This document shows positions 14,668 through 48,560 of a stretch of DNA of 64,000 nt, one piece after another; within the stretch, counting starts at the first letter, position 1, and each line of letters begins with the position of its first letter. The DNA is from Octopus vulgaris (taxonomy: Eukaryota). Made by a program: the position numbers and the translations under genes. The notes beneath the pieces were generated by a model, which worked only from the letters and a program-made list of their open reading frames with translations, searched no databases and was not told the DNA's origin. The stretch covers positions 4,960,001 through 5,024,000 of the forward strand of contig CATOCA020000001.1 of NCBI GenBank assembly GCA_951406725.2. Reading direction: 5' to 3'.

Positions 14668-14735
<68 letters not shown>

Positions 14736-14764
14736 CCTATATATCTACATATCTATCTATCTAT

Positions 14765-15922: not shown

Positions 15923-16129
15923 TGAATCCTTGGCATCATGTTTTTATTTTGATTAATTTACTCCACCACCTACACCACCAAACGGTATATACAGGTGCTT
16001 ACAATTATCAAGTACTCACCCTGAATTTCTATATATATACATATATAGATATATGCGTACATAGGCACACTCACACACACACACACACATATAAGCTATT
16101 TGGAATGTGTTCTCTTGTCGATTGTCAGG

Positions 16130-16900: not shown

Positions 16901-17098
16901 AACCACGGGTCCGCAGCTAGCTTTGTTGTTGTTGATGTTTATGTAGTTTCAAAATGTTTTATTCTTCAACTATGAGATGTATTGTTGATTTTTTGAATTT
17001 ATCTTACTATAATCAGCAACAAACACATTCCGTCAATATTAAATTCTTTATTGGATAAAAAAAAACATTATCAAAACATGAAGTTAAAACAAAACATA

Positions 17099-17158
<60 letters not shown>

Positions 17159-17202
17159 ATTATTATTAGTATTATTATCATTATCATTATTATTATTATT
17201 AA

Positions 17203-17275
<73 letters not shown>

Positions 17276-17605
17276 GGAATTTTTAACCGGCTAAACTTTT
17301 CACTCACTTCGTTACAATAAAATTATTTCATTTAATGCAATCGTTAATGTGATATTCCCTTCAGTTTCATATTAAAGAAAAGATTAGGCAGGGTTGTGTA
17401 TCTAATTGCATCATACACACAGACACACACACACACACACTCACAATCGTGCACATCATCTCTCCTCCTCTTCTTTTCCCTCTCTCTCTTCTATCACTCC
17501 CTCTCCCCACTCTTTCATTTTAACTCTTCCACTTCCACCGCCAATCATCATAAACTGCTGACTGAAACTTTTCAAATCGAAATTATATAACTAGAAATAC
17601 AGATG

Positions 17606-17658
<53 letters not shown>

Positions 17659-17779
17659 TTAGGATGAGGAATGTTCGTAACAGCTAACACGGACTGTGTC
17701 ATCATAATACTGTCCACGAAGCGGTGATAGGAGCAAAGCTTATCCAATAGAAGTCGGTGGGCCTGCAAATCGGCAGATG

Positions 17780-18740
17780 GAGAGGCAGACCCATACCTAC
17801 CGACAGGTTTTAGGGTCCTTAATGGAAAGACAGGTTAAACTGCTTGGGGTCTGGTCTGCTGTAGACCTCGAGGTGGACAACAACGGGTGGGAGGTGACGA
17901 ACAGGATAGTCGATCTCACCCAGAAATTGGCAGAGAGGAAGCTGTTCGTGAAGGGTCGAGTCGAGAGTCCTAATGCGTACATCGCTTCCGTCATCTATGA
18001 CTGCCTGAATTTAGTCCCATGCCCGATAAAGTTAGAGCGTTTGTTATTCCGCTTTCTAAAGAAGGGACGTGTTCCGCTCATCAGACGTTCTATCTGCTGT
18101 CAACAACCTCTCAGTGGAGTACTGTACATGTCGTTGCTAATGATTCGCAGACATGCGCTGAGACATCTCCTGCGTTTCTTTATGGGTTAGCATTGGGGAT
18201 TGACTGTTTGTCAAACGGGACTTTCCGCAGCTCGTCTCACTGAAGAAGCTACAGTACTGAGTGAAGCGTTGGCCAAGAAAGGGCGCTTGGCACCTGGAGT
18301 GTCGGCAAGCTCTCACAGCTTTCTGCCAGTCGGGCAATGCCGGCGTTGAAAGTTCCACCATGGATTTCTATAGGGGATTAGTAGAGGGGTAAGAACAAGG
18401 ACGAAATCGGGGTAAATTCTGGGCGTAGGTGGAGGGAATCAACTAACTGGTCTTTAACTTCCAGAAATCCCTGGTTTGGAAGTGCTACCGGGGAGCTCTG
18501 CCGATTCAAGACAAGCTCTACAGATACGAAAGTGTTGACGGACGGATATGTCAGGGATGTGCGCAGGGCGATCAAATAGTCCTGCATGCACTCATCCGTC
18601 CAGTTTACGAGCCGAGTTCATTGTAAAGATCGCCCCGCCACCTTTTTTCTGGCCGGGAAGGAAAAGCAGTTTCTCCTGCCCGGTGGCTAAAGAAGTAGAG
18701 TGGTGGACGAGACTGAAATCATTGAAGACTAAACCTTCTT
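17780..18740 (+). mobile_element. Degenerate L1/Tx1-clade LINE fragment, same family as 14765-15565
   Basis: VKLLGVW...ERKLFVKGRVE..NAYIASVIY...LERLLFRFL. Confidence 0.8.
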
Positions 18741-18820
18741 CACAGGAAAATTATGTCATTTAAAATTATCATTAAATATTATCATTAATATTCACTTCAG
18801 TTTTATATTAAAGCATTAGG

Positions 18821-21668: not shown

Positions 21669-21880
21669 ATAAATCTACGCCTGGCAATATGTTTCACCAC
21701 GTAGTATCATATAGACGGTCTCTTGTGTTGATACTGTGTACGATATTGTTTTTTTGGAGACTCAAGCTGATTCAGATATATGCAACACATGTAATTGCAA
21801 TTCACTTACAGCGGAATAAATTGTGCACGTCGCAATTTACTATCAATTCCACAACCAATTCCGACGAATGTTGAATATTT
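21669..21880 (+). CDS. Exon: signal peptide + LRRNT cap (ATG at 21689)
   Basis: Poly-T/acag acceptor ends at 21668; gtaagt donor at 21881. Reads MFHHVVSYRRSLVLILCTILFF/ETQADSDICNTCNCNSLTA/INCARRNLLSIPQPIPTNVEYL, matching the LRRNT pattern CxC...C...L..IP..IP. Needs two +1 corrections (T7 run near 21750, near 21815). Confidence 0.8.
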
Positions 21881-24800: not shown

Positions 24801-27800
24801 TCTGATAAATGAATACCAACGTTCGTTCACAGATAAAGAGAAAGATTATTTATGCAGCTCTGTAATGAAAGAGAGTAATTTCTATGGATCACCCAAGATC
24901 TGCGAATGCTCCAAAATGCAAGGATCAGCATATAAAAATACTAAGACCTACTGACATCAAATTGAGACCAACAGTTGCTGACCTTGAGCCCCAACACAAC
25001 AACTGAGCCATCTTTTGGATATACTCCTCAAACCGTTGTGCCCATTAATGGCCAGCTATACCCGAGACGATAAGGATTTCCTCAAACACATTCCACCCAC
25101 TGTCCCAGAACGTACTATACTTAAAAGATTTGACTAATCTTTGTACTAATACATCACACTTTGGGCCTGGAAGCAATCAAACACTGGGTAGAAAAACATA
25201 GCGGACGGATGGACGAACGCTTCAAAACGCATTTCCAAAGACACACGCCGGGAACTAGAAGACAACACCTTTAGATTCGATAATAAACTATATCGACATA
25301 TAAAAGGACACCACTGCGGGGACGAGGTTCACACACATACACGCACCCAGAGGTAGATATACATATGTGTGTATATTTCTGAGTGTATATGTGTGTATGT
25401 GCGTATATATGCATACATGTGCGTGTATGTGTGTGTTGGTACATAGAGAGGCGAAGCGGATACTCGAGGTTGTGCAAGTCAAGTAAGAAATAAACATGAA
25501 ACTGCTGCCACATTAAGACATTCTTCTCCTCCGTCTTCTTCTTCTTCTTCTTCTTCTTCTTCTTCTTCTTCTTCTTCTTCTTCTTCTCTTCTTCTTCTTC
25601 TTCTTCTTCTTCCTCCTCTTGGTCTCCTCTTGTTCTTTATCTTCTTCTGTTTCTTCTTCCTCCTCTTCTTCTTCTTCTGCTTCTTCCTCTTCTTGTTCTT
25701 TATCTTCTTCTTCTTCTTCTTCTTCTTCTTCTTCTTCTTCTTCTTCTTCTTCTTCTTCTTCTTCTTCTTCTTCTTCTGTCTTTCAATCCTTTTTCGGTTT
25801 TCATCTTGAACACCTTCATTTTCCATGTCTACTTTTTCTTGTTCTTGTTCTTCTTCTTCGTTATCTTTCTTCTTTTTCTTCCTTTCATTCTCAAGTCACA
25901 GTGTTTGATGTTGTATCACAAATATTTTCCAAATAATCTATTTTACTCTTTCTTTACTGCTATAGAGATCTGCGAGGAACAACATTGCAACCATCAAAGA
26001 AGGAGCATTCACGGGGCTTTCAAATTTAAACATTGTAAGTTCGTTCAGTTTCTTGATACTATTTTCCGAAAGTAATAATTGATGCTGATATATAAGCTCA
26101 CAATTGTATAATATTTCAGACTGAACTAAACAAAATTAATTCAAATTTGTAGAATGAACACGATTTAGGAATATACAAAGAGAATATGAGAGAGCGAGAC
26201 AATGTGAAATAAAGAGAGAGAATTTGAGAGAGAAATTGAAATAATAGGAAAAATATAATGTTCCTTTATTGTAGTTGCTTTGTTTCAATTCGCATCTCAA
26301 TAACTCATTTTTGTTCCCCAAATTTCAATGATTTTGATATGAATTTGTATTAGAAATGGTAACGTTTGTGAGTTTACATGTTTGCATCAAATATTTTTAG
26401 CTGAAGTATATGTGTATGTTCATATATAAGTGTAGTTCTGTGTGAAATGTGACTATATTATTCCTTTATTTTATATTTTACATCCTCCTCCATTTCTTAT
26501 TTCAATATTCTCCTTCGTGTTTCGATATTATCATTCAATTCGAATTTTGTCATTCACTTCACGTTATTTATGTAATAGAGCAACTGAAGTGGAAGCGGAA
26601 AATATATATTCGAATAATATAGTCACATACATTCTTTCTGTAAACCTGAAATACTTACTGTACTTGTAAGCTGGAATATTTGGCCTGATACAATTAAACT
26701 GCTGATATATTTCTTGTAAGCGTGTGTTTTCTAATATTCTTGTGACAATGAAGCGATATGAAATAAATAATCTCTCTCACCATATTTCCACAAGGGTGAG
26801 TGGGAATATGTGTGATGTGAGTGTGCATACCGCATTCCGTCGTTGATACTATGAATATAAGAATGCGTATGAGTGCATTTGAATATGTTGATTTCTGATT
26901 CCGTATATTCCCTGATTTTTCAGCCATGTCTTCTCGCCCAAAATTTTTCATTCTATCCTTGAATTATTTCCTGATATTTCGAAAATATTTTCAGTTTCAT
27001 CTTAAACACCATGATTTTCAATGTGTCTTCTTCTTCTTCTTCTTCTTCTTCTTCTTCTTCTTCTTCTTCTTCTTCTTCTTCTTCTTCTTCTCTTCTTCTT
27101 CTTCTTCTTCTTCTTCTTCTTCTTCTTCTTCTTCTTCTTCTTCTCCTTCTTCTTCTTTTTGTTCTTTTTCTTATTCTACTTCTCCTTCTCTGCCTTTTTC
27201 ATCATCTTTTTGTCATTTCGTCTTCCGCCTCCTCCTCCTTCTTCTTCTTCTTCTTCTTCTTCTTCTTCTTCTCTTCTTCCACTTCTAATTCATCTACTTC
27301 ATCTTCTTCTTCTTCTTTTCTTTTCTTTTTCTTCTATTTCACCTCCTCCTCCTCCTGGTCCTCCTCCTCCTCCTGGTCCTCCTGGTCCTCCTCCTCCTCC
27401 CGGACCTCCTCCTCCTTCCACTTCTAATTTTTTTCTTATTATTATTCTTCATTTTCTTCTTTAAATTCTCTTCCCCCTCCACTCCGCCCCTCCTCCTCCT
27501 ATTTCTTCTTGTAATTCTCCTCCTCCCCTCCTCTGCTGCTCCTTTTTCTTTTTTCTTCTTTTCTTCTTCGTCTTCTTCTTCTTCTTCTTCTTCGTCTTCT
27601 TCTTCTTCCTCTTCTTCTTCTTCTACTTTCAACTTCTTCATCTACCCTTCCTCCTCCTCCTCCTTCTTCTTATTCTTATTCTTATTCTTTTCTTCTACAC
27701 CTACTTTTTCCCTATCATCCTCTTCCTCCTCCTTTTTCCTCTTCCTTCTTCTACTTCTTTTTTTCATCTTCTTTTTTCTACCCAATCCTCTCCGCCCCTC

Positions 27801-30800
27801 CTCCTCCTCTTTCTTCTTCTAATTCTCTTCCTCCCTTCCACTCCTGCTCCTTTTCTTCTTCTTCTGCTTCTTCTTCTAATTCTTCTTCTTCTTTTCCTCC
27901 TCCTCCTTCTTTTTGTTTTCTTCTTCTCATTCTTCTATTTCTTTTTTTTCTTCTTATATTCTTCTTCTTCTTTCTACTTCTTTATCTACTTCTCCTCCTA
28001 CCCCTCTTTCTTCTTCTTATATTCTTTTTTTTGTTATTCTCCTCCTCCTCCTCCTCCTCCTTCATCTTCTTCTTCTTTTTCATCTTCTCCTACTTATTCT
28101 CCCCTTCTTACTCCTACTCCTCCTCCTTTTTCCTCCTCTTCCTTCTTCTTCTTCTTCTTCTCTACATCTTCTCCTCCTCCTCCTTCTCCTTCTTAACTTC
28201 TGTTTTTGTTATTCTCTTTCTCTCATCTCCTCCTTCTCCTCCTTCTTCTTCTTCATCTTCTTCTTCTTTTTCCTGCTTCAACTTCTTCTACGTCTTCTTC
28301 TTCTTGTTCTTCCCTTCCTTCTTCTTGCAATTCTTCTTCTTCCTCCTCCTCCTCCTCCTTCCTCCTTCTTCTTCGTCTTCTCCTTCTTCTTCCTCTTCTC
28401 CTTTCTTCTTTCTACTTCTTCATCTACTTCTCCTCCTCCTCTTCCTCGTCTTTCTTCTTCTTATCTTCTTCTTGTTATTCTCTTCCTCCTCCTTCTTTTA
28501 CTTTTTCTCCTGCATCTTCTTCCCTTTTATCAGCCTCCTCCTCCTTTTTCCTCCTATTCCTTCTTGCTCTTCTTTTTCTTCTACCTCTTCTCCTTTCTTC
28601 TTCTTATTCTTCTTCGCCTCCTCCTCTTCCTTCTTCTTCTTCCTTTTCTTCGTTATCTTTCTTCTTTTTCTTCCTTTCATTCTCAAGTCACAGTGTTTGA
28701 TGTTGTATCACAAATATTTTCCATATAATCTATTTTACTCTTTCTTTACTGCTATAGATATCTTGAAGGGAACAACATTGCAACCATCACAGAAGGAGCA
28801 TTCACGGGGCTTTCAAATTTAAACGGATTGTAAGTTCGTTCAGTTTCTTGATACTATTTTCCGAAAGTAATAATTGATGCTGATATATAAGCTCACAAAT
28901 GTATAAAATTTCAGACTGAACCAAACAAAATCAATTCAAATTTGTAGAATGAACAAGATTTAGGAAGATACAAAGAGAATATGAGAGAGCGAGACAATGT
29001 GAAAGAAAGAGAGAGAATTTGAGAGAGAAAGTGAAATAATAGGAAAAATATAATGTTCCTTTATTGTAGTTGCTTTGTTTCAATTTGCATCTCAATAACT
29101 CATTTTTGTTCCACAAATTTCAATGATTTTGATATGAATTTGTATTAGAAATGGTAACGTTTGTGAGTTTACATGTTTGCATCAAATATTTTTAGCTGAA
29201 GTATATGTGTATGTTCATATATAAGTGTAGTTCTGTGTGAAATGTGACTATATTATTCCTTTACTTTATATTTTGCATCCTCCTCCATTTCTTATTTCAA
29301 TATTCTCCTTCGTGTTTCGATATTAACATTCAACTTCGAATTTTGTCATTCACTTCACGTTATTTATGTAATAGAGCAACTGAAGTGGAAGCGGAAAATA
29401 TATATTCGAATAATATAGTCACATACATTCTATCTGTAAACCTGAAATACTTACTGTACTTGTAAGCTGGAATATTTGGCCTGATACAATTAAACTGCTG
29501 ATATATTTCTTGTAAGCGTGTGTTTTCTAATATTCTTGTGACAATGAAGCGATATGAAATAAATAATCTCTCTCACCATATGTCCACAAGGGTGAGTGGG
29601 AATATGTGTGATGTGAGTGTGCATACCGCATTCCGTCGTTGATACTATGAATATAAGAATGTGTATGAGTGCATTTGAATATGTTGATTTCTGATTCCGT
29701 ATATTCCCTGATTTTTCTGCCATGTCTTCTCGCCCAAAATTTATCGATCTATCCTTGAATTATTTCCTGATATTTCGAAAATATTTTCAGTTTCATCTTC
29801 AACACCATGATTTTCAATGTGTTTTTCTTCTTCTTCTTCTTCTTCTTCTTCTTCTTCTTCTTCTTCTTCTTCTTCTCCTTCTTCTTCTTCTTCTTCTTCC
29901 TCATCTTCTACTTCTTCTTTTTCTTATCCTACTTCTCCTTCTCTGCCTTTTTCATCATCTTTTTGTCATTTCGTCTTCTGCCTCCTCCTCCTTCTTCTTC
30001 TTCTTCTTCTTCTTCTTTTCTTTCTTCTTCCACTTCTACTTCATCTACTTTCTTCTTCTTCTTCTCTTCTTTTCTTTTTCTTCTATTTCTCCTCCTCCTC
30101 CTCCTCCTGGTCCTCCTCCTCCTCCTGGTCCTCCTCCTCCTTCCTCTTCTAATTTTTTTCTTATTATTATTCTTCATTTTCTTCTTTAAATTCTCTTCCC
30201 CCTCTACTCTGCCCCTCCTCCTCCTATTTCTTCTTGTAATTCTCTTCCTCCCCCTCCTCTCCTGCTCCTTTTTCTTCTTCTTCTTTTTCTTCTTCTTCTT
30301 CTTCTTCTTCTTCTTCTTCTTCGTCTTCTTCTTCTTCTTCTTCTTCTTCTTCTTCTACTTTCAACTTCTTCATCTACCCTTCCTCCTCCTCCTCCTTCTT
30401 CTTATTCTTATTCTTATTCTTTTTCTTCTACACCTACTTTTTCCCTATCATCCTCTTCCTCCTCCTTTTTCCTCTTCCTTCTACTTCTTTTTTCATCTTC
30501 TTTTTTCTACCCAATCCTCTCCGCCCCTCCTCCTTCTTTTTCTTTTCTTCTTCTCATTCTTCTATTTCTTTTTTTTCTTCTTATATTCTTCTTCTTCTTT
30601 CTTCTTCTTTATCTACTTCTCCTCCTTCTTCTTCTTATATTCTTCTTTTGTTATTCTCAACCTCCTCCTCCTCCTCCTTCATCTTCTTCTTCTTTTCATC
30701 TTCTCCTACTTATTCTCCCCTTCATACTCCTACTCCTCCTCCTTTTCCTCCTCTTCCTTCTTCTTCTTCTTCTTCTTCATCTTCTCCTCCTCCTCCTTCT

Positions 30801-33800
30801 CCTTCTTAACTTCTGTTTTTGTTATTCTCTTTCTCCTCCTCCTCCTCCTCCTCCTTCTTCTTCTTCATCTTCTTCTTCTTTTTCCTGCTTCAACTTCTTC
30901 TACGTCTTCTTCTTGTTCTTCCCTTCCTTCTTCTTGCAATTCTTCTTCTTCCCCTCCCCCTCCTCATCCTCCTTCTTTTTCGTCTTCTTCTTCTTCTTCT
31001 CCTTCTTCTTCTCCTTCTTCTTCTTCTTCTCCTTTCTTCTTTCTACTTCTTCATCTACTTCTCCTCCTCCTCTTCCTCGTCTTTCTTATTCTTATCTTCT
31101 TCTTCTTGTTATTCTCTTCCTCCTCCTCCTCCCCTCCTTCTCCTTCTTTTACTTTTTCTCCTACATCTTCTTCCCTTTTATCAGCCTCCTCCTCCTTTTT
31201 CCTCCTATTCCTTCTTGCTCTTCTTTTTCTTCTACCTCTTCTCCTTTCTTCTTCTAATTCTTCTTCGCCTCCTCCTCTTCCTTCTTCTTCTTCCTCTTCT
31301 TCTTCGTTATCTTTCTTCTTTTTCTTCCTTTCATTCTCAAGTTACAGTGTTTGATGTTGTATCACAAATATTTTCCATATAATCTATTTTACTCTTTCTT
31401 TACTGCTATAGAGGTCTGCGAGAGAACAACATTGCAACCATCAAAGAAGGAGCATTCACGGGGCTTTCAAATTTAAACGTATTGTAAGTTCGTTCAGTTT
31501 CTTGATACTATTTTCCGAAAGTAATAATTGATGCTGATATATAAGCTCACAAATGTATAAAATTTCAGACTGAACCAAACAAAATTAATTCAAATTTGTA
31601 GAATGAACACGATTTAGGAATATACAAAGAGAATATGAGAGAGCGAGACAATGTGAAAGAAAGAGAGAGAATTTGAGAGAGAAAGTGAAATAATGGGAAA
31701 AATATAATGTTCCTTTATTGTAGTTGCTTTGTTTCAATTCGCATCTCAATAACTCATTTTTGTTCCCCAAATTTCAATGATTTTGATATGAATTTGTATT
31801 AGAAATGGTAACGTTTGTGAGTTTACATGTTTGCATCAAATATTTTTAGCTGAAGTATATGTGTATGTTCATATATAAGTGTAGTTCTGTGTGAAATGTG
31901 ACTATATTATTCCTTTATTTTATATTTTGCATCCTCCTCCATTTCTTATTTCAATATTCTCCTTCGTGTTTCGATATTATCATTCAACTTCGAATTTTGT
32001 CATTCACTTCACGTTATTTATGTAATAGAGCAACTGAAGTGGAAGCGGAAAATATATATTCGAATAATATAGTCACATACATTCTATCTGTAAACCTGAA
32101 ATACTTACTGTACTTGTAAGCTGGAATATTTGGCCTGATACAATTAAACTGCTGATATATTTCTTGTAAGCGTGTGTTTTCTAATATTCTTGTGACAATG
32201 AAGCGATATGAAATAAATAATCTCTCTCACCATATTTCCACAAGGGTGAGTGGGAATATGTGTGATGTGAGTGTGCATACCGCATTCCGTCGTTGATACT
32301 ATGAATATAAGAATGTGTATGAGTGCATTTGAATATGTTGATTTCTGATTCCGTATATTCCCTGATTTTTCAGCCATGTCTTTTCGCCCAAAATTTTTCA
32401 TTCTATCCTTGAATTATTTCCTGATATTTCGAAATTATTTTCAGTTTCATCTTAAACACCATGATTTTCAATGTGTCTTCTTCTTCGTCTTCTTCTTCTT
32501 CTTCTTCTTCTTCTTCTTCTTCTTCTTCTTCTTCTTCTTCTTCTTCTTCTTCTTCTTCTTCTTCTTTTTGTTCTTTTTCTTATTCTACTTCTCCTTCTCT
32601 GCCTTTTTCATCATCTTTTTGTCATTTCGTCTTCTGCCTCCTCCTCCTCCTTCTTCTTCTTCTTCTTCTTCTTCTTTTTCTTCTTCCACTTCTACTTCAT
32701 CTACTTCTTCTTCTTCTTCTTCTCTTCTTTTCTTTTTCTTCTATTTCACCTCCTTCTCCTCCTCCTCCTGGTCCTCCTCCTCCTCCTGGTTCTCCTCCTC
32801 CTCCTGGTCCTCCTCCTCCTGGTCCTCCTCCTCCTGGTCCTCCTCCTCCTTCCTCTTCTAATATTTTTCTTATTATTATTCTTCATTTTCTTCTTTAAAT
32901 TCTCTTCCCCCTCCACTCCGCCCCTCCTCCTCCTATTTCTTCTTGTAATTCTCTTCCTCCCCTCCTCTCCTGCTCCTTTTTCTTTTTTCTTCTTTTTCTT
33001 CTCCGTCTTCTTCTTCTTCTTCGTCTTCTTCTTCTTCATCTACCCTTCATCTTCTTCTTCTTCTTCTTCTTCTACTTTCAACTTCTTCATCTACCCTTCC
33101 TCCTCCTCCTCCTTCTTCTTATTCTTATTCTTATTCTTTTTCTTCTACACCTACTTTTTCCCTATCATCCTCTTCCTCCTCCTTTTTCCTCTTCCTTCTT
33201 CTACTTCTTTTTTTCATCTTCTTTTTTCTACCCAATCCTCTCCGCCCCTCCTCCTCCTCTTTTTCTTCTAATTCTCTTCCTCCCTTCCATTCCTGCTTCT
33301 TCTTCTTCTTCTAATTCTTCTTCTTTTCCTCCTCCTCCTTCTTTTTCTTTTCTTCTTCTCATTCTTCTATTTCTTTTTTTCTTCTTATATTCTTCTTCTT
33401 CTTTCTACTTCTTTATCTACTTCTCCTCCTACCCCTCTTTCTTCTTCTTATATTCTTCTTTTTGTTATTCTCATCCTCCTCCTCCTCCTCCTCCTTCATC
33501 TTCTTCTTCTTTTTCATCTTCTCCTACTTATTCTCCCCCTTCATTCCCTACTCCTCCTCCTTTTTCCTCCACTTCCTTCTTCTTCTTCTTCTACATCTTC
33601 TCCTCCTCCTCCTTCTCCTTCTTAACTTCTGTTTTTGTTATTCTCTTTCTCCTTCTCCTCCTCCTCCTCCTCCTCTTCTTCTTCTTCATCTTCTTCTTCA
33701 TTTTCCTGCTTCAAATTCTTCTACGTCTTCTTCTTGTTCTGCCCTTCCTTCTTCTTGCAATTCTTCTTGTTCTTCCTCCCCCTCCTCATCCTCCTTCTTT

Positions 33801-35854
33801 TTCGTCTTCTTCTTCTTCTTCTTCTACTTCTTCTTCTTCTTCTCCTCTTTTTCTCCTTCTGCCTTATTCTTATCTTCTTCTTCTTGTTATTCTCTTCCTC
33901 CTCCTCCTCCTCCTCCTTCTTCTTCTTCTTCTTTTCACCTTCCGCCTCCTCCTCCTTTTTCCTCCTATTCCTTCTTGCTCTTCTTTTTCTTCTTCTTCTT
34001 CTTCTCCTTTCTTTCTTCTAATTCTTCTTCGCCTCCTCCTCTTCCTTCTTCTTATTCTTCCTTTTCTTCTTCGTTATCTTTCTTCTTTTTCTTCCTTTCA
34101 TTCTCAAGTCACAGTGTTTGATGTTGTATCACAAATATTTTCCATATAATCTACATTATTCTTTCTTTACTGCTATAGAAATCTGCAACGGAACAACATT
34201 GCAACCATCACAGAAGGTGTATTCACGGGGCTTTCAAATTTAAAAGACTTGTAAGTTCGTTCAGTTTCTTGATACTATTTTCCGAAAGTAATAATTGATG
34301 CTGATATATAAGCTCACAAATGTATAAAATTTCAGACTGAATCAAACAAAATCAATTCAAATTTGTAGAATGAACAAGATTTAGGAAGATACAAAGAGAA
34401 TATGAGAGAGCGAGACAATGTGAAAGAAAGAGAGAGAATTTGAGAGAGAAAGTGAAATAATAGGAAAAATATAATGTTCCTTTATTGTAGTTGCTTTGTT
34501 TCAATTCGCATCTCAATAACTCATTTTTTGTTCCCCAAATTTCAATGATTTTGATATGAATTTGTATTAGAAATGGTAACGTTTGTGAGTTTACATGTTT
34601 GCATCAAATATTTTTAGCTGAAGTATATGTGTATGTTCATATATAAGTGTAGTTCTGTGTGAAATGTGACTATATCATTCCTTTATTTTATATTTTACAT
34701 CCTCCTCCATTTCTTATTTCAATATTCTCCTTCGTGTTTCGATATTATCATTCAACTTCGAATTTTGTCATTCACTTCACGTTATTTATGTAATAGAGCA
34801 ACTGAAGTGGAAGCGGAAAATATATATTCGAATAATATAGTCACATACATTCTATCTGTAAACCTGAAATACTTACTGTACTTGTAAGCTGGAATATTTG
34901 GCCTGATACAATTAAACTGCTGATATATTTCTTGTAAGCGTGTGTTTTCTAATATTCTTGTGACAATGAAGCGATATGAAATAAATAATCTCTCTCACCA
35001 TATTTCCACAAGGGTGAGTGGGAATATGTGTGATGTGAGTGTGCATACCGCATTCCGTCGTTGATACTATGAATATAAGAATGCGTATGAGTGCATTTGA
35101 ATATGTTGATTTCTGATTCCGTATATTCCCTGATTTTTCAGCCATGTCTTTTCGCCCAAAATTTTTCATTCTATCCTTGAATTATTTCCTGATATTTCGA
35201 AAATATTTTCAGTTTCATCTTAAACACCATGATTTTCAATGTGTCTTCTTCTTTCTTCTTCTTCTTCTTCTTCTTCTTCTTCTTCTTCTTCTTCTTCTTC
35301 TTCTTCTCTTCTTCTTTTTGTTCTTTTTCTTATTCTACTTCCTCCTTCTCTGCCTTTTTCATCATCTTTTTGTCATTTCGTCTTCTGCCTCCTCCTCCTT
35401 CTTCTTCTTCTTCTTCTTCTTCTTCTTCTTCTTCTTTTCTTTCTTCCACTTCTACTTCATCTTCTTCTTCTTCTTCTTCTTTTCTTCTTCTTCTTTTCTT
35501 CTTCTTCTGCTCCTCCTCCTCCTGGTCCTCCTCCTCCTCCTGGCCTCCTCCTCCTCCTGGTCCTCCTCCTCCTCCTGGTCCTCCTCCTCATCCTGGTCCT
35601 CCTCCTCCTCCTGGTCCTCCTCCTCTCCTGGTTCTCCTCCTCCTGGTCCTCCTCCTCCTCCTGGTCCTCCTCCTCCTTCCTCTTCTAATATTTTTCTTAT
35701 TATTATTCTTCATTTTCTTCTTTAAATTCTCTTCCCCCTCCACTCCGCCCCTCCTCCTCCTATTTCTTCTTGTAATTCTCTTCCTCCCCCTCCTCTCCTG
35801 CTCCTTTTTCTTTTTTCTTCTTTTTCTTCTCCGTCTTCTTCTTCTTCTTCTTCG

Positions 35855-35889
<35 letters not shown>

Positions 35890-38800
35890 TTCTTCTTCTA
35901 CTTTCAACTTCTTCATCTACCCTTCCTCCTCCTTTCTTCTTATTCTTATTCTTATTCTTTTTCTTCTACACCTACTTTTTCCCTATCATCCTCTTCCTCC
36001 TCCTTTTTCCTCTTCCTTCTTCTACTTCTTTTTTTCATCTTCTTTTTTCTACCCAATCCTCTCCGCCCCTCCTCCTCCTCATTTTTCTTCTTCTAATTCT
36101 CCTCCTCCCTTCCATTCCTGCTCCTTTTCTTCTTCTTCTGCTTCTTCTTCTAATTCTTCTTCTTCTTCCTCCTCCTCCTTCTTTTTCTTTTCTTCTTCTC
36201 ATTCTTCTATTTCTTTTTTTTCTTCTTATATTCTTCTTCTTCTTTCTACTTCTTTATCTACTTCTCCTCCTACCCCTCTTTCTTCTTCTTATATTCTTCT
36301 TTTTGTTATTCTCATCCTCCTCCTCCTCCTCCTTCATCTTCTTCTTTTTCATCTTCTCCTACTTATTCTCCCCCTTCCTCCTCCTCCTCCTCCTTTTTCC
36401 TCCACTTCTTCTTCTTCTTCTTCTTCTTTACATCTTCTCCTCCTCCTCCTTCTCCTTCTTACTTATTCTTTTGTTATTCTCTTTCTCCTTCTCCTCCTCC
36501 TCCTCCTCCTTCTTCTTCTTCATCTTCTTCTTCTTTTTCCTGCTTCAAATTCTTCTACCGTCTTCTTCTTGTTCTTCCTTCCTTCTTCTTGCAATTCTTC
36601 TTCTTCCCCTCCCCCTCCTTCATCCTCCTTCTTTTTCGTCTTCTTCTTCTTCTTCTTCTTCTCCTTCTTCTTCTCCTTCTTCTTCTCCTTCTTCTTCTTC
36701 TCCTTTCTTCTTTCTACTTCTTCATCTACTTCTCCTCCTCCTCTTCCTCGTCTTTCTTATTCTTATCTTCTTCTTCTTGTTATTCTCTTCCTCCTCCTCC
36801 TCCCCCTCCTTCTTCTTCTTCTTTTTCTCCTACATCTTCTTCCCGTTTATCAGCCTCTCCTCTTTTTCCTCCTATTCCTTCTTGCTCTTCTTTTTTCTTC
36901 TACCTCTTCTCCTTTCTTCTTCTAAATCTTCTTCGCCTCTTCCTCTTCCTTCTTCTTCTTCTTTTCTTCTTCGTTATCTTTCTTCTTTTTCTTCCTTTCA
37001 TTCTCAAGTCACAGTGTTTGATGTTGTATCACAAATATTTTCCATATAATCTATTTTACTCTTTCTTTACTGCTATAGAGATCTGCAATGGAACAACATT
37101 TGCAACCATCAAAAGAAGGTACATTCACGGGGCTTTCAAATTTAAAAGAATTGTAAGTTCGTTCAGTTTCTTGATACTATTTTCCGAAAGTAATAATTGA
37201 TGCTGATATATAAGCTCACAAATGTATAAAATTTCAGACTGAACCAAACAAAATCAATTCGAATTTGTAGAATGAACAAGATTTAGGAAGATACAAAGAG
37301 AATATGAGAGAGCGAGACAATGTGAAAAAAAGAGAGAGAATTTGAGAGAGAAAGTGAAATAATAGGAAAAATATAATGTTCCTTTATTGTAGTTGCTTTG
37401 TTTCAATTCGCATCTCAATAACTCATTTTTGTTCCCCAAATTTCAATGATTTTGATATGAATTTGTATTAGAAATGGTAACGTTTGTGAGTTTACATGTT
37501 TGCATCAAATATTTTTAGCTGAAGTATATGTGTATGTTCATATATAAGTGTAGTTCTGTGTGAAATGTGACTATATCATTCCTTTATTTTATATTTTACA
37601 TCCTCCTCCATTTCTTATTTCAATATTCTCCTTCGTGTTTCGATATTATCATTCAACTTCGAATTTTGTCATTCACTTCACGTTATTTATGTAATAGAGC
37701 AACTGAAGTGGAAGCGGAAAATATATATTCGAATAATATAGTCACATACATTCTATCTGTAAACCTGAAATACTTACTGTACTTGTAAGCTGGAATATTT
37801 GGCCTGATACAATTAAACTGCTGATATATTTCTTGTAAGCGTGTGTTTTCTAATATTCTTGTGACAATGAAGCGATATGAAATAAATAATCTCTCTCACC
37901 ATATTTCCACAAGGGTGAGTGGGAATATGTGTGATGTGAGTGTGCATACCGCATTCCGTCGTTGATACTATGAATATAAGAATGCGTATGAGTGCATTTG
38001 AATATGTTGATTTCTGATTCCGTATATTCCCTGATTTTTCAGCCATGTCTTCTCGCCCAAAATTTATCGTTCTATCCTTGAATTATTTCCTGATATTCTG
38101 AGAACATTTTCAGTTTCGTCTTTAACAACATGATTTTCAATGTATCTTCTTCTTCTTCTTCTTCTTCTTCTTCTTCTTCTTCTTCTTCTTCTTCTTCTTC
38201 TTCTTCTTCTTCTTCTTCTTCTTCTTCTTCTTCCTCCTTCTCTTCTTCTTCTTCTTCTTCTTCTTCTTCTTCTCTTTGTTTTCACTTCTTCTTCTTTTCT
38301 TCTTCCTCTCCTCCTGCTCCTTCTCCTCCTTCGTTTTCTTCTCTTCTTTTTCTTCTTTTCCTTCTTCTTCTTCTCTTCTTTTCTTTTCTTCTACTTCTAC
38401 TCCTCCTCTCCTTCCTCTTCTAATTTCTTTCTTCTTCTTATTCTTCATTTTCTTCTTTAATTCTCCCCCCTCCACTCCGCCCCTCCTCCTCATTTTCTTC
38501 TTGTAATTCTCCTCTCCCCTCCTTCTGCTCGTTTTTCTTCTTCTTCTTCTTCTTCTTCTTCTTCTTCTTCGTCTTCTTCTTCTTCTTCTTCACTTCATTC
38601 CTCCTTTTTCCTCCTATTCCTTCTTGCTCTTCTTTTTCTTCTACCTCTTCTCCTTTCTTCTTCTTCTAATTCTTCTTCGCCTCCTCCTCTTCCTTCTTCT
38701 TCTTCCTTTTTCTTCTTCTTCTTTTCTTCCTTTCATTCTCAAGTCACAGTGTTTGATGTTGTATCACAAATATTTTCCATATAATCTATTTTACTCTTTC

Positions 38801-41800
38801 TTTACTGCTATAGAGATCTTGGATGGAACAACATTGCAACCATCAAAGAAGGAGCATTCACGGGGCTTTCAAATTTAAAGGGATTGTAAGTTCGTTCAGT
38901 TTCTTGATACTATTTTCCGAAAGTAATAATTGATGCTGATATATAAGCTCACAAATGTATAATATTTCAGACTGAACTAAACAAAATTAATTCAAATTTG
39001 TAGAATGAACACGATTTAGGAATATACAAAGAGAATATGAGAGAGCGAGACAATGTGAAAGAAAGAGAGAGAATTTGAGAGAGAAAGTGAAATAATGGGA
39101 AAAATATAATGTTCCTTTATTGTAGTTGCTTTGTTTCTATTCGCATCTCAATAACTCATTTTTGTTCCACAAATTTCAATGATTTTGATATGAATTTGTA
39201 TTAGAAATGGTAACCTTTGTGAGTTTACATGTTTGCATCAAATATTTTTAGCTGAAGTATATGTGTATGTTCATATATAAGTGTAGTTCTGTGTGAAACG
39301 TGAATATATTATTCTTTTATTTTATATTTTGCATCTTCCTCCATTTCTTATTTCAATATTCTCCTTCGTGTTTCGATATTATCACACAATTTCGAATTTT
39401 ATCATTCACTTCACGTTATTTATGTAATAGAGCAACTGAAGTGGAAGCGGAAAATATATATTCGAATAATATAGTCACATACATTCTATCTGTAAACCTG
39501 AAATACTTACTGTACTTGTAAGCTGGAATATTTGGCCTGATACAATTAAACTGCTGATATATTTCTTGTAAGCGTGTGTTTTCTAATATTCTTGTGACAA
39601 TGAAGCGATATGAAATAAATAATCTCTCTCACCATATTTCCCCAAGGGTGAGTGGGAATATGTGTGATGTGAGTGTGCATACCGCATTCCGTCGTTGATA
39701 CTATGAATATAAGAATGCGTATGAGTGCATTTGAATATGTTGATTTCTGATTCCGTATATTCCCTGATTTTTCAGCCATGTCTTCTCGCCCAAAATTTTC
39801 ATTCTATCCTTGAATTATTTCCTGATATTTGAAAATATTTTCAGTTTCATCTTAAACACCATGATTTTCAATGTGTCTTCTTCTTCTTCTTCTTCTTCTT
39901 CTTCTTCTTCTTCTTCTTCTTCTTCTTCTTCTTCTTCTTCTTCTTCTTCTCCTTCTTCTGTGTATTGTTCTTTTTCTTATTCTACTTCTCCTTCTCTGCT
40001 TTTTTCATCATCTTTTTGTCTTTTCGTCTTCCGCCTCCTCCTCCTCTTCTTCTTCTTCTTCTTCTTCTTCTTCTTCTTCTTCTTCTTCCACTTCTACTCC
40101 ATCTACTTCTTCTTCTTCTTCTTCTTCTACTTTTCTTCTTCTTCTATTTCACCTCCTTCTCCTCTCCTCCTGGTCCTCCTCCTCCTGGTCCTCTCCTCCT
40201 CCCTTCTGGTCCTCCTCCTCCTGGTCCTCCTCCTCCTCTTCCTCCTCTTCCTGGTCCTCCTCCTCCTCCTCCTGGTCCTCTTCCTCCTCCTGGTCCTCCT
40301 CCTTCCTCTTCTAATTTTTTTCTTATTATTATTCTTCATTATATTTTTTAAATTCTCTTCCCCATCCACTCCGCCCTTCCTCCTCCTATTTCTTCTTGTA
40401 ATTCTCTTCCTCCCCCTCCTCTCCTGCTCCTTTTTCTTTTTCTTCTTTTTCTTCTTCCGTCTTCTTCTTCTTATTCTTCTTCTTCGTCTTCTTCTTCTTC
40501 TTCTTCTCCTTCTTCTTCTTCTTCTTCTTCTTCTTCTTCTTCTTCTACTTTCAACTTCTTCATCTACCCTTCCTCCTCCTCCTTCTTCTTCTTCTTATTC
40601 TTATTCTTTTTCTTCTACACCTACTTTTTCCCTATCATCATCTTCCTCCTCCTTTTTCCTCTTCCTTCTTCTACTTCTTTTTTTCATCTTCTTTTTTTCT
40701 ACCCAATCCTCTCCGCCCCTCCTCCTCATTTTCTTCTTGTAATTCTCCTCCTCCCTTCCTTTCCTGCTCCTTTTCTTCTTCTTCTGCTTCTTCTTCTAAT
40801 TCTTCTTCTTCTTTTCCTCCTCCTCCTTTTCTTTTCTTCTTCTCATTCTTCTATTTCTTTTTTTTCTTCTTATATTCTTCTTCTTCTTTCTACTTCTTTA
40901 TCTACTTCTCCTCCTACCCCTCTTCTTCTTCTTATATTCTTCTTTTTGTTATTCTCATCCTCCTCCTCCTCATCTTCTTCTTTTTCATCTTCTCCTACTT
41001 ATTCTCCCCCTTCATACTCCTACACCTCCTCCTCTTTTTCCTCCACTTCCTTCTTCTTCTTCTTCTTCTACTTCTTCTCCTCCTCCTCCTTCTCCTTCTT
41101 AACTTCTGTTTTTGTTATTCTCTTTCTCCTTCTCCTCCTCCTCCTCCTCCTCCTTCTTCTTCTTCATCTTCTTCTTTTTTCCTGCTTCAAATTCTTCTAC
41201 GTCTTCTTCTTCTTGTTCTTCCCTTCCTTCTTCTAGCAATTCTTCTTCTTCCCCTCCCCCTCCCTATCCTCCTTCTTTTTCTTCTTCTTCTTCTCCTTCT
41301 TCTTCTCCTTCTTCTTCTTCTCCTTCTTCTTTCTACTTCTCCTCCTCCTCTTCCTCGTCTTTCTTATTCTTATCTTCTTCTTCTTGTTATTCTCTTCCTC
41401 CTCCTCCTCCACCCTCCTTCTCCTTCTTTTACTTTTTCTCCTACATCTTCTTCCCTTTTTTCAGCCTCCTCCTCCTTTTTCCTCCTATTCCTTTCTTGCT
41501 CTTCTTTTTCTTCTACCTCTTCTCCTTTCTTCTTCTTCTTCTTCTTCTTCTTCTCCTCCTCCTCTTCCTTCTCCTTCTTCTTCTTCTTCTTCTTCTTCTT
41601 CTTCTTTTCTTCCTTTCATTCTGAAGTCACAGCGTTTGATGTCGTAACACATATTTTCCATATAATCTAATTTACTCTTTCTTTACTGCTATAGAGCTCT
41701 GAACGAGAACAACATAGCAACCATCAAAGAAGGAGCATTCACGGGGCTTTCAAATTTAAAGGGATTGTAAGTTCGTTCAGTTTCTTGATACTATTTTCCG

Positions 41801-44800
41801 AAAGTAATAATTGATGCTGATATATAAGCTCACAAATGTATAAAATTTCAGACTGAACCAAACAAAATCAATTCGAATTTGTAGAATGAACAAGATTTAG
41901 GAAGATACAAAGAGAATATGAGAGAGCGAGACAATGTGAAAGAAAGAGAGAGAATTTGAGAGAGAAAGTGAAATAATAGGAAAAATATAATGTTCCTTTA
42001 TTGTAGTTGCTTTGTTTCAATTCGCATCTCAATAACTCATTTTTGTTCCCCAAATTTCAATGATTTTGATATGAATTTGTATTAGAAATGGTAACGTTTG
42101 TGAGTTTACATGTTTGCATCAAATATTTTTAGCTGAAGTATATGTGTATGTTCATATATAAGTGTAGTTCTGTGTGAAATGTGACTATATTATTCCTTTA
42201 TTTTATATTTTGCATCCTCCTCCATTTCTTATTTCAATATTCTCCTTCGTGTTTCGATATTATCATTCAACTTCGAATTTTGTCATTCACTTCACGTTAT
42301 TTATGTAATAGAGCAACTGAAGTGGAAGCGGAAAATATATATTCGAATAATATAGTCACATACATTCTATCTGTAAACCTGAAATACTTACTGTACTTGT
42401 AAGCTGGGATATTTGGCCTGATACAATTAAACTGCTGATATATTTCTTGTAAGCGTGTGTTTTCTAATATTCTTGTGACAATGAAGCGATATGAAATAAA
42501 TAATCTCTCTCACCATATTTCCACAAGGGTGAGTGGGAATATGTGTGATGTGAGTGTGCATACCGCATTCCGTCGTTGATACAATGAATATAAGAATGCG
42601 AATGAGTGCATTTGAATATGATTTATATTCCCTGATTTTTTTCCGTTTCTCGCCCAAGAATATTCCATATTCTGATTTTTCAGCTTTTCATGTTTCTCGC
42701 CCACCATGCTGCAATTTATCGATCTATCTCTTCTTCTTATTCTTCTCTCCTTCTTCCGCCATTCCTCCTGCTTCCTCCTTCTTCATTTCTTCTTCCTCTT
42801 CTTCCTTCTTCTTCTTCTTCTTCCTCCACCATTCTTCCTCCTCCTCCTCGTCCTTCTTCTTCCTTCCGCCATTCCTCCATGCTCCTCCTCCTCGTCATTC
42901 TCTTTTCTTCTTCCTCCTTCTTCTTCTTCTTCTTCTTCTTCTTCTTCTTCTTCTTCTTCTTCTTCTTCTTCTCCTTCTTCCGCCATTCATCCTGCTCCTC
43001 CTCCTCGTCCTTCTTTTTCTTCTACTTCCTCTTCTTCTTCTTCTTCTTCTTCTTCTTCCTCCACCATTCCTCCTGCTCCTCCTCCTCGTCCTTCTTCTTC
43101 TTCTTCTTCTTCTTCTTCTTCCGCCATTCCTCATGCTCCTCCTCCTCGTCCTTCTTTTTCCTCTTCTTCTTTATCTCTTCCTCTTCTTCTTCTTCTTCTT
43201 CTTCTTCTTCCTCCACCATTCCTCCTGCTCCTCCTCCTCGTCCTTCTTCTTCTTCTTCTTCTTCTTCTTCTTCTTCTTCTTCTTCTTCTTCTTCTTCTTC
43301 TTCTTCTTCTTTCTTCTTCTTCTTCTTCTTCTTCTTCTTCTTCTTCTTCTGCTTCTTCTTTTCTTCTATCTTTCTTGTTCCCTCCTCCCCCTACCCCTCC
43401 TTCTTTTCTACTTCTAATCTTTTCTCTTCTCCTTCTCCGTCTTATTCTTCATTTTCTTATTGTAATTCTCTTCCCCTCCTCCTCCTTTTTCTTCTTGTAA
43501 TTCTCGCCCTACCCCTCCCCATCTCCCTCCTTTTTTCTTCTTCTTCTTCTTCATCTACTTTTTCTCCCTCTTCTTCTGCTCCTCCTCTTCTTCTTCTACT
43601 TCTCCTTGTCTACCTCCTTCTTTTTATTTTTCTACTCTACTCCTTCTTCTTCTTCTTCTCTTCCACCTCCTCCTCCTCCTCCTCCTCTTTCTTTTTCTTC
43701 TTCTCCTACTTCTTCTGCTCCTTCAACCTCCTCCCTCCTCCTCCTATCTACCTCCTCTTCTTTCTTCTTCTTATTCATCTTTTTCCTTCTTCTTCTTTCT
43801 CTTCCTCTACCTATTCTTCTTCCTCTTCTTCTTGTACTTCTCATTTCTCTTCTCCTTCTTTTTCTTCCTCTTCTTCTTCTCCTTCTACTTCTCCTCCCCA
43901 TCTTCCTCCTTCTTTATCTTATTCTTCTCTTTCATCTTTATTTTTCTTCTTCTTCTTCTTCTTCTTCTTCTACTTTGTACTTCTTCATCTACTTCTCTCT
44001 CCCTCCTCTTTCTTCTTCTTATCTTCTTTTTGTTATTCTCCTTCTCCTCCTCCACATCCTCCTTCTTCAACTTCTTTTACTTCTACTTCCCCTTCATACA
44101 CCTCCTTTCCTCTTCTCCTTTTGTCTCCTCTTCCTCCTTTTGTCTCCTCTTCCTCCTTTTGTCTCCTCTTCCTCCTTCTCCTTCTTCTTTTCTTCTTTTT
44201 CTTCGACGTCTTTTTCTTCCTATTCTTCTTCTTCTACAACTCCTACTTCTTCTTCTCTTCTTTCTTTTTCTTCTTCTTCTTCTTCTTCTTCTTCTCCTTC
44301 TATTCCTCTTTATTCTTCTTGTAATTCTTACTCTCCCACTCCCCCTCATCCTCATCCTTTTTCTTCTGCTTTTTCTTTACTTAATCTACTTTCTACTCTT
44401 CATCTACTTCTCCTCCTCCTCCTCCTCCTTCTTCTTCTTCTTCTTTCTTTTTATTCTCTTCCTTCTTCTCCTTTTCCACCTCCTTCTTCATTTCTTTCTT
44501 CTTTTTCATGCTTCTTCTTCTTCTTGTTTCTCTTCTACTCCTCCTTCTTCTTCTTCTTTTTCTTCCTCTTCTTCTTCTTCTTCTTTTTCTTCATCTTCTT
44601 CTTCATTTTCTTCTTCTCCTTCTTCTTCTTCTTCTTCTTCTTCTTCGTCTCTTCTTCTTCTTCTTCTTCTTCTACTTCTTCTTCTTCTCCTTCTTTTTCT
44701 CCTCCTCTACTTCCTCTTCTTGTTTCCTTCTTGTTCTTCTTCTTCTATTTCTTCTTCATCTTCTTCTTCTCCTTCTTCTTTTCTTCTTCTTCTTCTTCTT

Positions 44801-47111
44801 TTCTTCTTCTCTTTCTTGTTCTTCTTCTTCTACTTCTTCTTCCTCGTCTCCTTCTTCTTCTTCTTCTTCTACTTCTTCTTCTTTTTCTCCTCCTCTACTT
44901 CCTCTCCTTGTTCTTCTTCTTCATCTTCTTCTTCTTTTCTTCTTCTTCTTCTTCTTCTTCTTCTTCTTCTTCTTCTTCTTCTTCTTCTTTTTCTTCTTCT
45001 TCTTTTTCTTCTTCTTCTTATTCTCCTCCTTATTCTCCTTCTTCTTCTTCTTCTTCTTCTTCTTCTTCTTCTTCTTCTTCTATGTTAGCACTGAGGACAT
45101 CCTCAATAAAATGAGTATTTTTGGTCACTCCAAGTTCGTCACATGTTGTGTAGTGGACACTAAGGACTTGATTCCCTCTACCCATCTATTGACATCGATT
45201 TTGCTGGAGTATAATGTAATGAGATTGTCTGTGAAATGTGAAGTGAGGTCAACACGCGTGATCCGTGTCTCGTTCTTAGACTATATATTCTACCCCGCCA
45301 GATCACAGATTCTTAGACCACCCACCATCACTTCAGCAGTAAATAAATGCACCACTGAGCGCTGGTGTGGCTTGACCCTACCCACCCAACTCCCTGAGAA
45401 CAACAATTAGGAGAAAGGAATGATTGCACAGGCAGTAGGAGCTAGCGTAAGAACCACCTTGAAGAACCACAGACTAAAGTATAACTAGTTTAGTTTAGTT
45501 TAATTTTTTGTCTCAAAAAGCAAAAGCAAGGCCATGTAGGGGGACAGGGCGTTATGTACAGGGAGGGTGGTCATACAAAGAGTTCAGGCTATTTCTGGTC
45601 AAGAGAGACTTTGAACCGAGCGGTCGTCGGCATCTTCACTATCTCGTCCGGCAGCTTATTCCACGGATCCGCAACCCGGACGGAGAAAGCCCCTCTCCTT
45701 CGATTGAGATGAAATCGTCGTAGATAGAGCTTTTCGGAGTGACCTTGCAGCCGACGCTCTGGAGCAGGAGTGAAGAACAGCTCTTTCGAGAGGATACACT
45801 TTCCGCTTATGATGTAGTGACCAAGAATGAGATCACCACGGCGTCGTCGTTTTTCGAGAGAACAAAGGTCGAGCGTCTTCGGCCTTCCTTCATAAGACAA
45901 ATGCTTGAAACTATACATGTAAGTTCAAGGTGCAGCCATTTGTGTCGGTGTATCTGGAGATATTGCCGGCCTCTTCATGACCTGGTGGATCAGAAAACCT
46001 AAGCAATTCTTGGCAAAACAGTCCACAACTCTTCTAATTTTCTGTAGGTATATAGATGGCATTAATATCACAGTTAAGACCAGCTCTAGTAACGGTAATG
46101 TGGAAACTGAGAGGAACATAATGGAGAGCATCCAGCAAGTAGCCAACTCCATCCACCCAAAGTATCAAGGTGACTACAGGTTATCCCACCCGGCACCCCA
46201 ACATTTGACTCCCCGTCCTTGTTACTGAACTTCACTTAGAGACTGTGAACAACAGAGTGCAGCTCTTCCACTCCTATTACATGATTTAATTAGTAATTCA
46301 GCTCTCAACCGAATTAATTGCATCGTTTTGGCAATGATGATCGAGATGTAAGCTACATTTCGAGCTAAAATAATTGGAAATTGATTCTTTAAAATATTTA
46401 TTTCAAAGTTTTCGAGGTAAAAAATGGCAGCGTAAGGCAAAAAAGTGACTTTGAATCAAAATATCTCAGTTATTTCCAAAGGAAATGTGTAGATTAATCA
46501 AATTTAAAAGAATGTCTTCATGGGGAAGACTCTTTTAGTAAAAATCCCGTTATAAAAATCAACCAAGAAAAAAGCAGTGTGGCTTTTAGCGACGTAGAAT
46601 TGGTAACAATTAAATCCACGTCGAAGTGTTCTAATGCTTCTGATATTTGTTTGCCAATGATTTCCAATAAAATTTGATGAGCTATCCTTGTTCTTCATTG
46701 CCTTCTGAAGTGTTCAAATTGTAAAGTCAATTTATAGGTACCCAGTATATATCTTCTACCAAAAGGTGACCATTGTTTTATGTACTTTGAATAGGATTCT
46801 GAAAGTTATGTACTAGCCTGATGATGGTCAATGTTATTGCAATAATTATTATTTTATTGTTTTGAAAACCTTTTTTATCATTACACTGCTACTGGAGTAT
46901 GTACTTTTACTATTCCTTGTTTCAGTTATCAGATTGCGGCCATGCTGGAGTACTACCTTCAAGCGTTTACTCGAACAAATCATCCTTAGTACTGAATTTT
47001 TAAAATCTGGCACTTAATCAGTCGGATACCTTTTGAGGAATCACTAAGTTACGGGGGACGTAAACAAACCAATATTGGTTATCAAGCTTACAAACACACC
47101 ATATATATAAT

Positions 47112-47200
<89 letters not shown>

Positions 47201-48560
47201 GAAGGGAATCCACACAGTTTCCTGCAGCAAATTTACTCACAACGCTTAGTTGACCCAAGGTTATAGTAAATGTTATTTGTCCAAGGTGCCACACAGTTGG
47301 ACTAAAGAATCCATGGATGTGAGAAGTAATTTTCCTGCCACAGAACCTTGCCTATATGGAGGATGATATTTCTACCATAGATGAGAATGTTGACTAAAAC
47401 CCATATTGTGCACATAAGAAAGTCTCCTTGTTATTTTGTTAGTTTTGTATTTTATCCTCTTCCATCTTTTGCTGTTTTGTTATCAGGTTTTCTTTTAGGA
47501 AATTAAGTTAGATTGAAGGAACCTATTCTTGTTCAAACAACACTTCCCAGAGAACTATAAAGAGAAATAAACAATTGTAGTGTGTAATATCAGCATTTAC
47601 CCTGTTAGTGTTGACTGAAACGCCATTTAGTACTGAACAGGAAAAACATATTTATTTATTTTTACTTATTTTAAAGTGTGTAATATTTGTCTCTTTTTCA
47701 GATATTTGAACAGCAACCCAATAGAAAAATATGAAGATGGCGCTTTCTTATTCCTTCCCAGCATAGCTACAATGTAAGCAAACAAGTTCTTTTTGGTTAT
47801 AAGAAAATAAAAATAATAAAATGAGGTCATCAAATTCTCAATTCCTCGTTAAATGTTGTTGGTAATAAACAACAATGATTTGATTTAAATTTCAGTGGAT
47901 CAACATGATTTCCGAGCACTGTGTTTTATTATCGAAAAGTTTATGTTCAAATATCAGAAGGTTGATTTGATCTAGTTTACCCCATGTTTATAAATACACA
48001 TAATTAACTGGAGTCGAGAGAGTGGCCTACATACAAACCTTCTTGCACACATATATAAATTTTCCTGTGTGTGTATGCGTATGTGCATATATAAGCATAC
48101 ACACACACATATATATATATTGTTATTACTTATTTATATCCTTATGACAACGGAGTTATCAGAAGGAATAAGATCCACAAAAAATTCCATTCAAATATTT
48201 CTGATGACTGCTGTATTTGCCTCTGTATTTCTACCACGAAACCATTTGGTATAATATTCTTTCTACGATAAGCACAATGCCTGCAATTTTGTGGCTGGGG
48301 GTTTGTCGATTACATCCACCGTAGTGCTCGGCTGGTACTTAATTCATCGACCCCAAGAAGGTGAAAGGCAAAATCGTCCTCGAAAATTTGAACTCAGAAC
48401 ATGAAAACAGAACACCCTGTAACTGTTGGGTCGATTAATACGCAGTATTACTGTATCGCAAGATTTTGTGATTTGCCAATCTGACAGAAACGGGATGGTT
48501 CAATATGTATGATATCTCCATTCTTCTGTGTTAATATATATATATATATATATATATATA

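Follow-up and report, generated by a model that had tools for sequence, protein, structure and literature searches.

The stretch of Octopus vulgaris DNA analysed here (the window) comprises 64,000 nucleotides (assembly GCA_951406725.2, contig CATOCA020000001.1, positions 4,960,001 to 5,024,000 of the forward strand). It contains a gene in which an exon for a signal peptide and LRRNT is followed by seven leucine-rich repeat (LRR) exons, termed cassettes below, a last LRR exon, an LRRCT exon, a Cys-rich domain in two exons, two SEA-like exons and an assembly gap (Table 1). Concerning GAIN, GPS and 7TM exons, no later exon was found between the second SEA-like exon and the next paralogue, and the gap at 62969 interrupts the gene there. 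Based on its cysteine pattern, we take the Cys-rich domain to be Ly6/uPAR-like (putative); its fold was predicted with pLDDT below 50, and neither a Pfam match nor an Atlas match was obtained. The second Cys-rich exon is invariant at eight loci on three contigs, whereas the LRR exons diverge, and some relatives (P0001, P0003, and P0004) have the domain in duplicate or triplicate. Next to the Cys-rich domain, the SEA-like part alone had a confidently predicted fold. Upstream of the gene, two related blocks at 13200-18750 contain, as judged by eye, decayed coding fragments of LINE-like appearance, and a 184-nt repeat (3.6 copies) at 5843-6509 resembles a common SINE of octopuses.

Table 1. Features of the LRR gene in the window (positions counted from the first letter of the window).
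Feature	Position	Strand	Remarks
First coding exon (signal peptide and LRRNT)	21669..21880	+	ATG at 21689; ends in phase 2 on TT
LRR cassette 1	25966..26034	+	69 nt; internally out of frame as assembled
Duplicated introns	26035..41694	+	cassette spacing 1.7-2.9 kb
LRR cassette 2	28758..28829	+	72 nt; head YLEG, tail NG
LRR cassette 3	31412..31483	+	72 nt; head GLRE, tail NV
LRR cassette 4	34179..34250	+	72 nt; head NLQR, tail KD
LRR cassette 5	37079..37152	+	74 nt; 2 additional bases in homopolymer runs; head DLQW, tail KE
LRR cassette 6	38814..38885	+	72 nt; head DLGW, tail KG
LRR cassette 7	41695..41766	+	72 nt; head ALNE, tail KG
Last LRR exon (eighth)	47702..47773	+	72 nt, phase 2; sequence and splice signals of its own; last bases AT (Ile with next exon)
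Final strand and LRRCT exon	51850..52006	+	157 nt (most paralogues: 158)
Cys-rich domain exon 1	56846..56931	+	
Cys-rich domain exon 2	58910..59093	+	CCxxxxCN end; identity of 100% across 8 loci, one of them in the window
SEA-like domain exon 1	60036..60118	+	SEA match under the curated cut-off in an abalone homologue
SEA-like domain exon 2	61168..61220	+	last exon found ahead of the gap
Assembly gap	62969..63068	.	cuts the gene; next paralogue begins about 1.7 kb past the end of the window

All seven cassettes are bounded by exact copies of ttactgctatag and gtaagttcg (seven matches of each, on the plus strand only), and every one has A as its first base and TT as its last two, giving the junction codon TT|A for Leu4 of LxxLxLxxN. 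The upstream exon supplies x2 and x3 of each strand and the downstream exon x5, x7, and x8, as had been described in a preliminary description of this DNA. That description also held that every intact LRR exon is 72 nt long with phase 2 at both ends, which is true of five of the seven cassettes (69, 72, 72, 72, 74, 72, and 72 nt, in order) but not of cassettes 1 and 5. Its further statements, that the junction lies in the second Leu codon and that the splice signals are near-identical, apply to all seven cassettes, where the signals are in fact exact, but do not extend to the last LRR exon, which has an AT/Ile junction and other signals. The signals in the window are identical because whole exon-plus-intron units were copied. 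In the predicted model of a relative (P0007; single-sequence AlphaFold, pLDDT mostly 70-90 across the repeats), the first strand comprises residues 71-82, begins at x3 and spans the junction residue Leu72. Structure comparison showed that the predicted fold of the relative agrees with typical extracellular LRR proteins.

The repeated unit consists of an exon and an intron, with roughly 1.0 kb of unique DNA, nearly identical between units, followed by a TTC/TCC-rich tract of 0.6-1.75 kb ahead of each acceptor. Over 800 nt, the window introns are 97.3-99.6% alike (98.6% overall), and the window exons are 89.1% alike. Long TTC/TCC tracts, of a kind prone to recombination, lie at 27026-45081 in the window, and a pyrimidine tract precedes 156 of the 173 cassettes sampled from the family (see below). 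Among type-A cassettes of a young subfamily, nucleotide diversity was 0.157 within the exon, compared with 0.045 on its upstream side and 0.081 on its downstream side.

A genome-wide search with a tight pattern, namely a 72-nt exon split in the same Leu codon, gave 709 places, compared with 10 for the reversed control; a looser exon pattern, which gave 2156 matches against 1217 in the control, was discarded. Among the first 100 matches listed for the tight pattern were loci with mutually divergent exons at C2 11.0 Mb, C3 76.7 Mb, C4 112.7 Mb, and C7 95.6-95.9 Mb. The 72-nt, phase-2, split-Leu geometry is thus far above chance yet ordinary, and it is not peculiar to the window gene; the caveat in the preliminary description that such exons are common was well placed. 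The introns within gonadotropin-receptor LRRs are likewise noted to be all phase 2 (PMC11378527). Separately, a 120-kb array at C8:79131203-79251834 contains 39 or more LRR exons with this geometry, in alternating subtypes.

Searching the genome for the family gave 40 scored matches to exon 1 and 62 candidates for the Cys-rich exon. From 20 regions, we sampled 173 cassettes in 19 gene copies. Nearly all are 72 nt long (162/173) and have a GT donor (170/173); one, of 66 nt on C2, was extracted wrongly from a copy that has lost its acceptor. The 15 arrays recovered in full, with exon 1 at one end and the last LRR exon at the other, contain 2, 2, 3, 5, 5, 6, 7, 7, 8, 10, 11, 12, 12, 21, and 24 cassettes. 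The cassettes are of two types, A and B, whose order varies between arrays, and the window array contains type A only. At C5:141880850-141885171, four inverted cassettes beside a gap are the mirror image of cassettes 6-9 in their own array, which represents either a true inversion or an assembly fold-back.

Variation is concentrated in a few codons. In the young subfamily, the entropy of 79 type-A cassettes was 2.62 bits at x3, 2.79 at x5, 3.09 at x7, and 2.91 at x8, compared with at most 1.14 elsewhere; x2, which had been described as variable together with x3, hardly varies (0.99 bit). In type-B cassettes, too, these sites are the most variable. For 75 distinct type-A exons, pN at x2, x3, x5, x7, and x8, a site set fixed a priori, was 0.49 against 0.048 elsewhere, with a pS of 0.21 over all codons and pN/pS ratios of 2.2-2.65 in half-subsamples, these values being pairwise counts on recombining copies rather than a formal selection test. 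A-to-I editing was rejected as a source of the variation, which is present in the genome sequence.

The cassettes are also mosaic. The 79 cassettes combine 48 heads and 17 tails into 67 combinations with weak head-tail association (p 0.05-0.10), and within cassettes all four gametes are present for 1101 of 1431 site pairs, which thus fail the four-gamete test. Across introns, 44 of the 48 adjacent pairs form distinct tail-head strands with no association between the two parts (p 0.34 and 0.52; low power). Of 75 units, 63 have their closest counterpart in a different gene; for the remaining 12 it lies in the same gene, against 6.8 expected, and local duplication occurs as well. Since the cassettes are mosaic and most have their nearest unit in a different gene, new strands arise already at the DNA level, through exchange both in introns and inside exons. 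The deletion and shuffling of cassettes envisaged in the preliminary description are supported by gain, loss, and mixing in DNA across paralogues. In contrast, its emphasis on the split strand as a special ingredient is not upheld, because the same geometry occurs at divergent LRR loci and cassettes recombine inside exons too.

The array is probably best explained by germline cassette shuffling combined with diversifying selection on binding-face residues. Units of one repeat, each comprising an exon and its intron, have been copied in tandem within an octopus gene family, and unequal crossover and gene conversion in the germline among these near-identical units would be the mechanism of exchange, perhaps promoted by the long TTC/TCC tracts. 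The symmetric phase keeps any cassette change, skip, or dead exon in frame, and selection would diversify four binding-face codons (x3, x5, x7, and x8).

Alternatively, diversity could arise mainly in RNA, through regulated or stochastic skipping that gives each cell its own subset of cassettes and thereby new strands of x3 with x5, x7, and x8; we regard this as improbable, although not negligibly so. Cassette-to-cassette splicing does occur in transcripts of the family. In contigs of runs X1, X10, and X4, which we guessed to be RNA, cassette exons had a cover of approximately 70-420 compared with 0-6 for introns, and junctions of exon 1 to cassette, cassette to cassette, and cassette to last exon were found at the predicted TT|A sites. 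These contigs represent mostly paralogues, none being assignable to the window copy, and differences between paralogues or alleles could mimic skipping in them; run X2, with deep intron cover, was treated as DNA-mixed. As the preliminary description stated, any skip, deletion, or reordering stays in frame, which is true by arithmetic. Annotated isoforms also point to skipping. The five annotated C14 proteins contain cassettes 1-3-4, 2-4, 2-3-4 (twice), or 2 alone, and all of them omit the last LRR exon (AT donor; L099:7341-7450) with the reading frame kept. The 13 isoforms of one O. sinensis model differ in length by steps of 24 aa, and seven isoforms of another were retrieved. In run X10, exon 1 is joined straight to a YLFK head that occurs only in a fifth cassette in the sampled genes. 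LRR splice isoforms are also reported for crab VLR2 (PMC10045472) and brown-algal ROCO genes (PMC11378527).

However, three O. sinensis isoforms combine one YLSEN head with three different tails, which is impossible by splicing at exon ends unless three such exons exist, and an internal AG|GT in 84 of the 173 exons allows an aligner to place a false intron. For these two reasons, part of the annotated skipping is likely to be a mapping artefact, with false introns arising from chimaeric alignment. The contig most nearly exact to the C14 cassettes (X4 record 24) joins them in genomic order; cassette joints at 90% likeness to the C14 gene were excluded from the skipping count, as most of these pieces carry several differing letters and represent paralogues. 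When exon 1 and cassettes 1-3 of a compact five-cassette gene on C30 were compared, cassette 3 was without cover, and the pieces were paralogue-like. A seven-cassette gene could, moreover, provide at most 128 subsets. Skipping probably adds some isoforms. The Dscam-like combinatorial potential proposed for this locus is a possibility rather than a demonstrated property: skipping is in frame and annotated isoforms skip cassettes, but mid-exon chimaeras are present among these isoforms and the subsets of in-line cassettes are limited in number. Mutually exclusive choice of the Dscam type is not what was observed, as cassettes are joined to one another in the contigs and many are present per annotated protein.

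A less probable reading, and one to which we give little credence, takes the window copy for a decaying pseudogene and its array for the outcome of neutral turnover of repeats in DNA rich in microsatellites. Four window exons carry frame-breaking indels (exon 1, the LRRCT exon, and cassettes 1 and 5), and three exons of the neighbouring copy are also broken; the pyrimidine tracts noted above would suit neutral turnover. However, most of the indels lie in homopolymer runs, and the five intact window cassettes contain no nonsense substitution. The coding part of exon 1 is 192 nt in the window copy, owing to two homopolymer indels, against 191 nt in 14 of 14 paralogues, and such indels were absent from all 14 of these other copies of exon 1. 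Private short indels per private substitution numbered 12/58 in the window copy and its neighbour, both gap-flanked, compared with 15/258 in ten others, an excess expected from local consensus errors. The frameshifts in the window copy are therefore probably assembly errors rather than signs of decay, and neutral turnover does not predict that exons exceed introns in divergence at four codons only. Somatic rearrangement of cassettes, in the manner of lamprey VLR assembly, is very unlikely: near-identical introns do provide long homology and 10 of the 17 heads in the RNA contigs are missing from the 173 sampled cassettes, but the gene is complete and in-line with its own splice sites on each cassette, no empty germline gene with flanking donors was found in the 164 kb read, and alleles, other species, or unsampled paralogues may account for the unmatched heads.

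Judged by its sequence, the window gene is a member of an octopus-expanded LRR family related to adhesion GPCRs. The Cys-rich exon gave 33 protein matches, of which 32 are named and all 32 are from Octopus, many being titled adhesion GPCR G6-like or slit-like. Pfam matches in relatives include LRR, GPS, and 7tm_2, and no Pfam match to a ROC-COR domain was found among the proteins scanned. Eight paralogues could be followed to a recognisable end: two of them (C31:2.93M and C30:15.48M) have GAIN/GPS and 7TM exons, whereas six stop after SEA-HormR-SEA without a 7TM domain, and these shorter forms would be secreted. The O. bimaculoides protein P0066 has LRR, GPS, and 7tm_2 matches together with a C-terminal Death domain, a combination that suggests immune signalling. 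The stalk and the domain order are common to remoter relatives from Argonauta, abalone, Aplysia, and Nucella as well. The molluscan LRR-SEA-HormR-GAIN-7TM receptors (abalone P0101, Aplysia P0102, and Nucella P0100) have a homologous stalk with 27-30% identity and the same order of domains but, unlike the octopus arrays, few LRRs as counted by Pfam stretches; a receptor of this kind is the likely ancestor of the octopus family.

By domain content, rather than by a tree with the published sequences, the window family seems to fit octopus group 3 of the adhesion GPCRs (Ritschard et al. 2019, PMC6408891). Group 3 is likewise a set of octopod-expanded GPS and 7tm_2 receptors, with LRRs in 5 of 22 members and a Death domain in one; the same paper reports its expression in nerve cord, suckers, skin, and gills, as well as clustering and positive selection. 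The passages of that paper considered here do not describe cassette arrays, hypervariable LRR sites, forms without 7TM, or splicing. The expansion of the family is thus already in print (PMC6408891), and the mode of shuffling matches that of brown-algal ROCO genes and Tetrahymena LRR arrays. Our literature search, which covered few subscription papers, found no account of the cassette architecture in octopus, including in passages of PMC13428168, PMC9712504, and PMC6408891. Poor short-read annotation of such loci may explain why the expansion has been published but not the architecture.

A parallel is drawn here with the brown-algal LRR-ROCO genes (Zambounis 2012, PMC3341825; Teng 2024, PMC11378527), which are described as encoding a single LRR in each 72-nt phase-2 exon and as showing shuffling of exons, selection at four sites on the concave face, and annotated splice variants. 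The octopus family shows corresponding features, with one-LRR exons of 72 nt and phase 2 (162/173), cassettes varying in number (2-24) and order, and, by pairwise counts, a concave-face pN of 0.49 against a pS of 0.21. However, the algal proteins are ROC-COR GTPases, whereas the octopus proteins are extracellular and GPCR-derived, and the selected algal sites (14, 16, 18, and 19) lie within one exon, whereas the octopus strand is divided by the junction. The Tetrahymena arrays, as presented in PMC6564038, also vary in exon number, consist of phase-2 exons closest to those of other genes, and have been attributed to unequal crossover; they differ in having 90-bp exons, in belonging to ciliate genes and in their link to retrotransposons.

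Jawless-fish VLRs and crab VLR2 share with the octopus genes the LRRNT-LRR-LRRCT arrangement, a variable concave face, and the existence of long and short forms (PMC13428168, PMC10045472). VLRs are, however, reported to be assembled somatically from an incomplete gene (PMC13428168), and crab VLR2 is described as a single gene with ten splice forms (PMC10045472), whereas the octopus genes form a germline multigene family; in place of an incomplete gene with flanking donor cassettes, a complete in-line array was found. The assembly of jawless-fish VLRs is also driven by a deaminase. Arthropod Dscam1 resembles the octopus genes in its tandem duplicated exons of equal phase. In Dscam, the Ig exons within a cluster are mutually exclusive, whereas octopus cassettes are serial and joined to one another in RNA contigs. 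Dscam genes are cited as alternatively spliced arrays in PMC11378527. A repertoire on adhesion GPCRs resembling both VLRs and Dscam, with dozens of membrane and secreted receptors, cassettes reshuffled between animals, and cell-specific skipping in the service of immunity or neuronal identity, is a conceivable but improbable reading.

Under germline shuffling with diversifying selection, recognition of fast-changing non-self ligands would be the role of the family with about an even chance, while a neuronal recognition code is possible at roughly half that expectation. Because binding-face codons outpace the adjacent introns, the number of cassettes has a twelve-fold range and forms with and without 7TM coexist, the octopus LRR family makes a strong candidate for a diversified cephalopod recognition system. 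It provides a concrete target for investigating how octopuses recognise pathogens or label neurons.
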